IMG/VR virus record: IMGVR_UViG_3300028832_000112
Span: 1 to 64,000 of that record
Length of the DNA: 64,000 nt
Reading direction: 5' to 3' (one strand)
Source: a virus
Taxonomy: Duplodnaviria; Caudoviricetes
The position numbers were made by a program, and so were the translations under genes. This document shows, piece by piece, positions 44,362 to 61,514 of this stretch (position 1 is the first letter of the stretch; each line of letters starts with the position of its first letter). The notes beneath the pieces were generated by a model, which was not told the DNA's origin, made no database searches, and was given only the letters and a program-made list of their open reading frames with translations.

Positions 44362-44839
44362 TAAGACTCCTACGACAAATGAAATAGAACGCGAGTTCTA
44401 TTATGCAATGTTGCCAGCAAGTGGCAACGAAAGCGGCACTGGCGACCTCTATTTCTGGTTCAGCAATATGGCTCGCCGTGGAATTCCTAGTGACTACGGC
44501 TGGTCGACGATACCGGAAGATGTGAAGCATGGCTATTCGTCGTCCAAGGATTCCTTGATGGAGTTCCTTCACAATACGCTGGCTCTGGATATCGACCGAG
44601 GCACTTGGAGCATGGCGGAAGCTACTGCCGTGCAGATATTCAAGGTCACTGAAAAAGTCGTGACGACAACATCGGTAGAACCCTATCCTTCCCTCAAGGT
44701 CGAGGAGTCCGCCATAACTGAGGTCGGCGAGGAAAAGTACGGCTGGAACGACCATGAGGAAACCACCACTTGCCCAAGGTGCGGCGAAGAAGGCGTTCCG
44801 TACGGTAATTGCCCTCACTGCGGCTATGACATCCACTAA
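44348..44839 (+). CDS. Hypothetical protein with C-terminal zinc ribbon
   Basis: AGGAG RBS; CPRCG......CPHCG. Confidence 0.65.
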   Translation: MSENSKTPTTNEIEREFYYAMLPASGNESGTGDLYFWFSNMARRGIPSDYGWSTIPEDVKHGYSSSKDSLMEFLHNTLALDIDRGTWSMAEATAVQIFKVTEKVVTTTSVEPYPSLKVEESAITEVGEEKYGWNDHEETTTCPRCGEEGVPYGNCPHCGYDIH

Positions 44840-59719: not shown

Positions 59720-59782
59720 AATATAGCAATATAACGAAATTATGGCAAACGCATTGCCAACATTTTGCAATATTGCTATATT
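59720..59782. promoter_or_regulatory. Back-to-back divergent early promoters
   Basis: Minus strand TTGCCA(59748)-N17-TATATT(59725); plus strand TTGCCA(59754)-N17-TATATT(59777). Confidence 0.8.
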
Positions 59783-59788
59783 GAAGGC

Positions 59789-59936
59789 AAACTTTTCATA
59801 AACACAGCCGTCATTCAAGATACGAATGATAATAAACTTTATTATAGAATAAGTTAGTGGTATTTCTTGTTCTGATAAAAGAGTTTTTCGGTGCTCCGGT
59901 GACGTTAAATACCACAATAGGCGTTACCGGAGCACT
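59789..59936 (+). ncRNA. Putative structured RNA (kissing-loop double hairpin) upstream of tnpB
   Basis: Stem 59834-59886 with loop GTGGTATTT (59857-59865); stem 59890-59936 with loop AAATACCAC (59907-59915); the loops are exact reverse complements. Confidence 0.55.
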
Positions 59937-61067
59937 TCTTGTTTGTATGATAACGACCGCCCAGAAGATAATGTTGATAGTCGATAGCAAAACGGCAAGC
60001 GCGTTGAATCGCGCATGCGGCTGTGCTCGCTATGCATACAACTGGGCTAGGGATGCATGGTTTGCCAAGAAGGCCGCTGGGCAAAAAGTTGTGACGTGTG
60101 CAGAACTCCGCAAGGAGTTTAACGCACAGAAGTCTGACTGGATGTACGAGAGTCCAAAGGGCTCTATGGATCAAGCTATCAAGAACTTCGTTCTTGCCAA
60201 GAAACGGCATTACGAGAATCCAGAATTGTTCGGGTTTCCCAAGCGAAAGAAATACAAGTCAAACCGCTCATTCTACATAGAGAACGATAAAGCGAAGTTA
60301 ATGGATGAATACCACATCAAGCTTCCCAAAATACCGAATCCAGTTAGACTGGCAGAGTCAGTACGACCAGAATGCCTATCCGGTAAGATAAACAACTTCG
60401 TCGTATCTAAGGGAAGCAACGACCGTTGGTACATCTCGATATCCTATACTTACGATGACACAAATAGTTTGTACGGAACTGGTGAGAATGGCCTTGTTGG
60501 CATAGACATTGGCGTTAAGACGCTGATGCAACTATCTACCAGCGAATGCGTCTCCAACGAGCATATCAACAAACGGCATTATAAGCGACTTAAACGATAT
60601 CAAAGGATGATGTCCCGCCGTACATACAATTCAGTCCACTACAAGGACATCAAGAAGACTTTTAATAAGAAGAATACTTATATAAAGAACTACCGTAAGG
60701 ACTTGATACATAAGGCTACTACAGAGATAGTCAAGCATAATATGGTCGTGGCCATAGAAGACTTGAATGTAAAGGGTATGATGTCCAACCACAAGTTGGC
60801 GTCTGCAATTTCGGACTGCGGATTCGGCATGATCCGTAGGTTCCTAGAGTATAAAAGTGCCAAGTACGGAACGCTGCTCTTAAAAGTCGGGAGGTTCTTT
60901 CCGTCTTCAAAGAAATGTTCCGGATGCGGACATGTGAAAGAAAACCTTTCATTGTCCGAACGAGAGTTTATTTGCGAGGAATGCGGACTGGCTATCGACC
61001 GCGATACCAACGCCGCAATCAACATACTCGCCGAAGCCTTGTTCAATGAACTAAATAAGAGATTCAA

Positions 61068-61161
61068 TACCGACATTGCCCGTCGGAAATTCACGCCAGC
61101 GGACTTGGTAGCTCTGGCCTCTTCCCTTTCGGGAACTGGTGAACCTACCGAGGTCGATGCT
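61068..61161 (+). ncRNA. Putative omegaRNA (reRNA) scaffold overlapping the tnpB 3' end
   Basis: TACCGAC-N7-GTCGGAAATTCACGCCAGCGGAC start typical of TnpB right ends; stem GACTTGGTAG (61102) / CTACCGAGGTC (61145) enclosing ttccc-tttc-gggaa. Confidence 0.7.
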
Positions 61162-61231
61162 CATCGTCTACTTACCAGAGATGGTAGGACGGCTATGGTG
61201 GACGATTTCTTTAATCGTCTATGGAACCAAG

Positions 61232-61260
61232 TTGCCAACGCAACCATAAATTGCTATATT
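61232..61260 (+). promoter_or_regulatory. Sigma70-type early promoter
   Basis: TTGCCA-N17-TATATT. Confidence 0.75.
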
Positions 61261-61316
61261 TAAGACCTAGACAATACAGTCTATATCTTTATATACTTTT
61301 TAGGAGGCAGCCTATC

Positions 61317-61514
61317 ATGGGTGTTATTGAAATCTGGACTCTCGTATCCATCATCCTTCACTTCGCTGGCGTGGAAAACTTCAAGGACTGGCCAGTCATC
61401 GCATGGCCGACCACTTGGTCTTGCATGTGCCTTGAACTCTGGATGCTCATCGTCTACGCTGTAATCATCGTCGGCGTTGTCATTACGGCAATCTTCGCCG
61501 CGAGAAAGCGATAA
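61317..61514 (+). CDS. Small membrane protein
   Basis: AGGAGG RBS; two hydrophobic segments. Confidence 0.7.
   Translation: MGVIEIWTLVSIILHFAGVENFKDWPVIAWPTTWSCMCLELWMLIVYAVIIVGVVITAIFAARKR

Follow-up and report, generated by a model that had tools for sequence, protein, structure and literature searches.

Positions 59792-61310 of the window (the whole stretch of phage DNA analyzed here, 64,000 nucleotides long) are, judged by their sequence, a non-autonomous, tnpB-only member of a clade of IS607-family transposons, and the element carries ahead of tnpB a kissing-loop leader RNA that is a real, conserved structure belonging to this transposon group and is apparently undescribed. The kind of element is known and what is new is the RNA motif attached to it. 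We regard the identity of the element and of its RNA structures as very probably correct, and we favor, with less assurance but as a probable reading of the whole, an IS607-type tnpB-only element with GGAG as its target, an omegaRNA encoded in its right end and a leader that acts in cis. The features on which this reading is built are the following:

59720-59782, no strand assigned: phage intergenic palindrome with two divergent sigma-70-type promoters with extended -10, outside the mobile element
59792-59833, plus strand: remnant of the class A inner left-end region, by homology to L006 and L052-type copies
59810-59830, plus strand: small hairpin in the left-end remnant
59834-59886, plus strand: leader hairpin 1, a long imperfect stem with the kissing segment 59857-59865 in its loop
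59890-59936, plus strand: leader hairpin 2, a 17-bp G+C-rich stem with the kissing segment 59907-59915 in its loop
59947-61263, plus strand: tnpB, RNA-guided endonuclease of 438 aa, by Pfam, NCBIfam and structure match
61100-61310, plus strand: omegaRNA scaffold, which is the transposon right end, by the consensus fold of 33 right ends
61232-61260, plus strand: outward-facing promoter-like site, TTGCCA-17-TATATT with TG, inside the right end
61302-61310, plus strand: last bases of the right end, with a Shine-Dalgarno-like AGGAGG (61302-61307)
61311-61330, plus strand: candidate guide segment of the omegaRNA, in the flank after the right end
61318-61514, plus strand: downstream phage gene for a 65-aa hydrophobic protein

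The window belongs to a 105.7-kb virus fragment (completeness estimate 26%) that contains one copy of the leader-tnpB element plus, beyond the window, a distant second tnpB, and in which no tnpA or IS607 transposase was found. Protein scans returned four close loci from IMG/VR and about 40 from metagenomes with TnpB proteins of 65-93% amino acid identity, mostly in rumen-type samples; the clade has so far been seen only in rumen-type phage and metagenome contigs. Among GTDB species genomes the best TnpB relative reached at most 48% identity in a partial match and 38% across most of the protein, which gave no clue to a host, and a megablast search of GenBank phages with a 7 kb query gave no match.

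The TnpB protein contains the Pfam domains OrfB_IS605, Cas12f1-like TNB (zinc-ribbon) and HTH, scores 258.8 bits against NCBIfam guided_TnpB (cut-off 100) and has intact RuvC D/E/D motifs as read from the sequence, so that HTH/REC, the RuvC D-E-D triad and the zinc-ribbon (TNB) are all present and TnpB is predicted to be an intact nuclease. The closest natural, that is not AI-designed, solved protein is ISDra2 TnpB (PMC8612924; PDB 8bf8/8h1j), whose structures match at E 2e-41. The open reading frame extends about 75 codons beyond the nuclease core, across the DNA that encodes the omegaRNA. An earlier note on this DNA had described a solo TnpB with neither tnpA nor an obvious ribosome-binding site; this description holds, given that the entire 105.7-kb record lacks tnpA and that no Shine-Dalgarno sequence precedes tnpB.

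The family is identified by a relative, L081 (= L005; TnpB 69% identical), in which an upstream open reading frame with the Pfam domains HTH_17 and Resolvase overlaps the start of tnpB. This gene passes the NCBIfam transpos_IS607 equivalog with 189 bits against a cut-off of 110, and the clade is therefore IS607-type; because tnpA is absent from the record of the window, the window copy is non-autonomous. The element moves as a whole, 5' module and 3' structures together with tnpB, and occupies more than 30 phage contexts that are unrelated to one another. The right boundary is precise: similarity among relatives stops sharply at 61310, and in 33 distinct loci a right end alike in kind is followed by unrelated flanks. 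Conservation thus continues 85 nt beyond the limit of 61225 given in the earlier note, and the "next promoter" that it had placed outside the unit (61232-61260) in fact lies inside the right end.

We compared the ends with the IS607 mode of insertion, i.e. at or after GG and with neither inverted terminal repeats nor a long target duplication. The left end directly follows GG in about 20 of 24 loci, and insertion at GG is thus seen in the relatives; the left junction of the window copy itself is lost. All right ends finish in ...GGCAG, with a GG 3 nt inside the end, and unlike known IS607 elements, which terminate in GG, those of the window clade stop in AG. In most copies the left terminus is conserved, and the distance from it to the start codon is 185 nt (class B) or about 215 nt (class A). 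The window copy is of class A, with similarity to L006 and L052-type copies beginning at 59792, and lacks the left terminus (about 63 nt), a motif present in about 25 relatives. In its place lies the phage intergenic palindrome with its two divergent promoters. The same truncation and arrangement recur in L089, which is from the same phage lineage as the window, and in L057, L063 and L082 the terminus is missing or varied while everything from the leader rightwards is kept.

IS607 elements integrate at GG, and the TAMs of most IS607 TnpB proteins are AGGAG or GAGGG (review PMC13565253); the GG requirement of IS607 has been shown experimentally (Sternberg-lab preprint, bioRxiv 10.1101/2023.11.20.567912). 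In the clade studied here intact copies start right after GG and AG is common to both junctions, which points to GGAG, the core of a Shine-Dalgarno site, as the target and probable TAM. Two loci bear on the proposal that the AG is shared, and in a noisy test of open reading frames across the junctions they alone were clearly readable. In L067 the joined flanks match the window genome at 44393-44838 across the junction, where a gene for a small CxxC...CxxC protein is uninterrupted; this empty allele has two bases more than the left and right flanks of L067 together and the reading frame is kept, as fits one AG shared by both junctions. The empty allele in the window genome reads GGCG where GGAG is proposed. 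At the L060 junction, keeping the AG yields GGAG, a spacing of 8 nt and a GTG start whose GTGA overlaps the stop codon of the gene before it. At the window locus, where the left junction is missing, the element's own TAM is unreadable, and no tnpB-free allele was found either by BLAST against all fetched loci or with the upstream protein in IMG/VR.

That GGAG is a Shine-Dalgarno core explains why most copies lie 3-11 nt before a start codon. The start codon of an open reading frame of at least 40 codons lies at this distance past the right end in 19 of 33 distinct insertion sites, a three-fold enrichment over random positions in the same loci (20%). In the window the insertion target was probably the ribosome-binding site of the gene for the 65-aa protein, and the AGGAGG of the right end now lies 10 nt ahead of its start codon. 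The element thus has Shine-Dalgarno cores as its target, and its last bases stand in for the ribosome-binding site of the interrupted gene.

The right approximately 210 nt encode an ordinary omegaRNA scaffold, as predicted from their fold and position. The consensus fold of the 33 distinct right ends (235 nt) comprises 64 pairs, 27 of them with compensatory changes, and takes in the GAGA hairpin (~61171-61188), the hairpin at 61201-61219, a hairpin that includes the -35 box of the promoter-like site and a closing helix in which the final bases of the element take part. Like an omegaRNA, the region is structured, shares sequence with the 3' end of tnpB, ends where the transposon ends and is followed by a variable flank; no Rfam family including RAGATH-18 matched it at E<=10 for the window or E<=5 for seven relatives. 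On the basis of the right-end boundary and the established TnpB mechanism (PMC8612924), we infer that the flank from 61311 onwards is the guide, and the guide segment would then span the start of the downstream gene.

The promoter-like site at 61232-61260 is of the phage's own promoter type and has its -35 box within a covarying omegaRNA hairpin. Together with the Shine-Dalgarno-like sequence it may restart expression of the interrupted downstream gene. The site is kept in about 18 of the 33 distinct right ends, and seven have a 3-nt deletion in the -10 region; its degradation in about 40% of copies indicates that restarting the downstream gene is not universally needed.

The leader occupies about 110 nt between the left end and tnpB, from the conserved word AUAUAAAC at its 5' limit to a point 9-15 nt ahead of the tnpB start codon. 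Folding of the 5' region was far more stable than that of shuffled sequences (z = -6.15), and the loops of hairpins 1 and 2 contain exactly complementary 9-mers (59857-59865/59907-59915). The kissing hairpins proposed in the earlier note are borne out by covariation in a MAFFT alignment of 31 distinct copies. In hairpin 2 pairing reaches 99.6%, 10 of the 17 pairs are compensated and G.U pairs are numerous, which together argue that selection acts on the plus-strand RNA. In hairpin 1 pairing of the upper stem reaches 96.8% and four of its five pairs are compensated; the lower stem is only weakly supported in the MAFFT alignment, and hairpin 1 folds in every relative. The loop-loop helix is 98.9% paired with double changes in two columns, and an exact loop complement of 8-10 nt is present in 31 of 31 copies in six co-varying sequence versions, of which that of L082 has four consecutive positions altered on both sides. 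Given this covariation, and given that shuffle and slide controls gave far lower pairing than observed in the leader, the kissing loop is real.

The leader follows the transposon. It is kept next to at least five left sides that differ or are truncated; it is absent from L070 and L073 (80% aa identity) and from the group with 65-69% identity. A covariance model of the leader (R1) matched once in the 105.7-kb record and nowhere in 56 loci whose TnpBs are distant or lack a leader, and a degenerate DNA pattern for loop 1 retrieved from the 2.9 million viral contigs of IMG/VR only known tnpB loci and chance matches. The view that the leader RNA has no known family was also upheld by Rfam 15, a search that the earlier note had proposed, in which no relevant family was found at permissive thresholds (E<=10 for the window and E<=5 for seven relatives). 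Two further ideas were rejected: a three-way junction formed by pairing of the start-codon region with the conserved AUAUA ahead of hairpin 1, since both sides are invariant and minimum free energy folds have the start codon paired in few relatives, and homology of the leader to tnpA of the autonomous relative, for which the score was no better than for shuffles.

Combining these data, we suggest that the TnpB-omegaRNA complex would cut element-free alleles at GGAG followed by the sequence from 61311 onwards and that repair of the cut by recombination during co-infection would restore or spread the element. Homing-type retention of this kind would explain the intact copies without a left terminus, and cutting of the empty site followed by restoration of the element is the established role of ISDra2 TnpB-omegaRNA (PMC8612924). 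The leader would act in cis on the tnpB message. Its very stable structure, the lack of a Shine-Dalgarno sequence and the U-rich tract suggest that it attenuates or insulates expression of tnpB and the omegaRNA from phage read-through transcription by (i) partial termination at hairpin 2 and the U-rich tract, (ii) hindered ribosome loading or (iii) both. In all variants hairpin 2 has a G+C-rich stem with a U-rich tail, the spacer to the tnpB start codon being U-rich throughout; it was not flagged by a terminator scan, the limit of which is exceeded by its loop of at least 13 nt, and its U-run is interrupted. A full terminator ahead of tnpB would silence tnpB as well and any termination would therefore be partial. 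Throttling or insulation of the input into tnpB by the leader is the weakest part of our explanation, and we advance it tentatively, somewhat short of even confidence.

A broader proposal, which we consider rather unlikely, is that the leader is a new functional RNA class peculiar to phage-borne IS607 TnpB elements, serving as a TnpB-sensing operator, a processing device or an attenuator, and that with the right-end promoter and ribosome-binding site the element lives at the ribosome-binding sites of phage operons and homes after its ends have decayed. If so, the element would occupy these sites without killing the phage, and RNA-guided homing would spread it even after decay of the transposon ends.

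Alternatively, the leader could be an operator or cofactor RNA that is bound by TnpB, either for autoregulation by mimicry of the omegaRNA or as a second RNA of the nuclease complex. TnpB recognizes pseudoknotted structured RNA, the leader co-occurs strictly with the TnpB clade of the window and is retained in copies no longer able to transpose, and loop 1 has a short U-rich word in common with the loop of one omegaRNA stem. However, this shared word is short, with no co-variation between classes, pairing between leader and omegaRNA is not conserved, and L070 and L073 have the same TnpB type but no leader, and we judge binding by TnpB to be unlikely.

Slightly less credible still is that the leader is an RNA-processing element, i.e. 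a self-cleaving ribozyme or an RNase III site that releases the tnpB message from the upstream phage transcript, in the way that R2 elements use a ribozyme at their 5' end. The elements apparently lack a promoter of their own and lie inside operons, and the stacked hairpin-kissing-hairpin helices would form a long double-stranded rod, as would suit processing; moreover, RAGATH-18, the IS607 omegaRNA, was first found via neighborhoods rich in self-cleaving ribozymes (in part, review PMC13565253). Against this, no Rfam 15 ribozyme family matches in the window (E<=10) or in seven relatives, core words of the hammerhead type are missing from the junctions, and the conservation of unpaired bases is within what shallow divergence explains.

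The earlier note had also considered that a single RNA brackets tnpB, and an IStron-like arrangement in which 5'-3' helices close such an RNA that may splice or circularize would be of value for insertions inside coding sequence, as in L067; IS607-group I intron fusions are known (bioRxiv 10.1101/2023.11.20.567912). The sequence features listed in that note (promoter, hairpins, loops, 7-mers and 3' hairpins) were all found in place, including the 7-nt complements AGCCGUC and GACGGCU (59806-59812/61188-61194) and the approximately 9-nt complements of a second helix (~59818-59829/61161-61169). However, neither long-range helix is conserved. A 7-nt complement between stretches of 160 nt and 65 nt is expected about 0.5 times by chance; the 5' 7-mer lies within a segment found only in class A and missing in most relatives, so that the 5' partner is absent in class B and other copies, and where it is present its changes are uncompensated. 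Both 3' partners pair locally with one another in a stem that covaries, and the 3' part is the omegaRNA scaffold. As to a group I core, its absence was noted earlier and agrees with the lack of an Rfam match; cmscan alone could miss a core split by the open reading frame, but an unbiased scan of column pairs between the 5' and 3' alignments likewise found no helix, and an intron core would not fit into the short 5' region. Finally, the left flanks end in G where U is expected before a group I 5' splice site. A bracketing RNA is thus very improbable.

No more credit can be given to the idea that the hairpins are structures for recognition by a transposase at the DNA level, as in the left ends of IS200/IS605 elements. 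Their position between the left end and the first gene would suit such a role, but this family uses a serine recombinase on double-stranded DNA and not a Y1 (HUH) enzyme, the numerous G.U pairs of the RNA would be mismatches in the DNA of the other strand, and the hairpins persist in copies without a terminus; the serine recombinase and the RNA-level G.U pairs likewise exclude the standard IS605 TnpA hairpin that the earlier note had raised. Least probable of all is the invasion by tnpB of a loop in a pre-existing phage ncRNA of about 220 nt, since, despite the phage promoter directly upstream in the window, both halves travel with tnpB through more than 30 unrelated contexts, the one empty site found, that of L067, consists of directly joined flanks and contains no RNA halves, the covariance model finds no other leader copy in the 105.7-kb record or the 56 other loci, and the loop 1 pattern occurs in the 2.9 million viral contigs only beside tnpB of the window type.

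The leader sets the window clade apart from the IS607 TnpB-omegaRNA transposons that it otherwise resembles, such as the Clostridium botulinum element (bioRxiv 10.1101/2023.11.20.567912; PMC13565253). As in those elements, the autonomous relative encodes a TnpA of the serine-recombinase type, the guide RNA behind tnpB is structured and finishes at the right end, the target or TAM is G-rich (GG, AGGAG-like), the site is scarless and copies without tnpA are frequent; by contrast, neither RAGATH-18 nor another Rfam model matches the omegaRNA of the window, a kissing-loop leader of 110 nt lies ahead of window-type tnpB and the clade has been seen in phage-type contigs only. In ISDra2, an IS200/IS605 element, the guide RNA likewise overlaps the 3' end of tnpB, but the transposase type and the TAM are different. 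We know of no structured 5' leader described for ISDra2. IStrons, in which a group I intron is fused to IS605 or IS607, also have structured RNA left of tnpB and RNA functions that compete on one transcript; the window element has neither a group I core nor splice-site features, and its 5' RNA is only about 110 nt long.

Parallels for the proposed function of the leader come from elements that shield their transposase gene from outside transcription, IS200 by a left-end terminator and a hairpin occluding the ribosome-binding site and IS10 by fold-back inhibition. As in these elements, the first gene is separated from the left end by a stable RNA structure, and the opposite end bears signals for outward expression. 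However, their single hairpins pair with the ribosome-binding site, whereas pairing of the start codon is inconsistent in the window clade, where a loop-loop helix holds two hairpins together. A further parallel is with the free-standing homing endonuclease genes of T4-like phages (in part, PMC13565253), in which a nuclease gene is wedged between phage genes, probably spreads by cutting element-free genomes in co-infection and has its expression damped by RNA structure; the difference is that the nuclease of the window element is RNA-guided and that the element can transpose when TnpA is supplied.

Cas12 descends from TnpB/omegaRNA systems, which serve as compact genome editors, and self-control of expression in TnpB elements is poorly known. 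The present analysis supplies a well-supported structured leader RNA that goes with one TnpB clade and has no Rfam entry. It also provides a clear case of an RNA-guided nuclease element at phage Shine-Dalgarno sites (GGAG) with what appear to be replacement expression signals inside its guide-RNA gene, and the copies that keep leader, nuclease and guide after loss of the terminus fit homing between co-infecting phages. Current understanding is not overturned by these data but gains concrete, testable parts.

The palindrome that took the place of the left terminus in the window copy carries a plus-strand promoter, TTGCCA-17-TATATT with an upstream TG, at 59754-59782 and a minus-strand promoter running from 59748 to 59720. 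The plus-strand phage promoter is predicted to drive the leader and tnpB now. In L003 and L052 a search of the left ends gave no sigma-70-like promoter, and such copies therefore probably rely on phage read-through transcription. The TTGCCA-17-TATATT type occurs at eight sites in the window against 0.03 expected. The palindrome was also the only source of Rfam matches, as spurious miRNA-like hairpins.

The last nuclease motif of TnpB is followed by about 75 further codons, and this part of the gene runs over the sequence encoding the omegaRNA scaffold. This and the other features considered here are the following:

61033-61263, tail of the tnpB open reading frame beyond the nuclease core
22096-61260, interval holding eight sites of an extended -10 promoter type (TTGCCA/TTGACA, 17 nt, TGCTATATT) found by a scan of the window
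44775-44790 (approximately), empty equivalent of the L067/L085 insertion site, within a match at 44393-44838
1-860 of locus L081, autonomous relative
91272-92285 of the contig of the phage's own record (G000), outside the window, a second, distant tnpB (L151; NCBIfam guided_TnpB, 107.8 bits)

Among close relatives the length of the tnpB product is kept at 436-438 aa, and the 61033-61263 stretch is therefore doubly constrained. The right ends of seven related loci (L003, L053, L059, L061, L068, L071 and L087) share a 3-nt deletion that removes the extended -10 of the outward right-end promoter and leaves the omegaRNA helices unharmed, suggesting that the predicted promoter activity may be dispensable or lineage-specific.

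The promoter type itself is recurrent in the phage (eight matches in the window versus 0.03 expected), and two of the eight sites make up a 63-nt palindrome at 59720-59782 in an arrangement for divergent transcription. These sites point to a host that uses promoters of the sigma-70/sigma-A type and Shine-Dalgarno sequences.

In the window, the unoccupied counterpart of the site at which the L067 and L085 copies reside falls within a gene for a small CxxC...CxxC protein. At this point GGAG must have been present in the occupied lineage; the window allele has GGCG instead and is thus without the presumed TAM.

In the autonomous relative, AAGG precedes the left end, tnpA has a perfect -35 box (TTGACA) upstream of it, and the tnpA and tnpB genes overlap; the kissing-loop leader is absent from L081 1-860. 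The second tnpB of the phage's own record lacks this leader. Two copies of the element, L056 and L060, reside on one 105.6-kb phage contig (Ga0310696_10000193, from a metagenome) and differ in leader class (A and B). Several relatives lie at the ends of their contigs, which is where they would be expected if assemblies broke at repeated copies.
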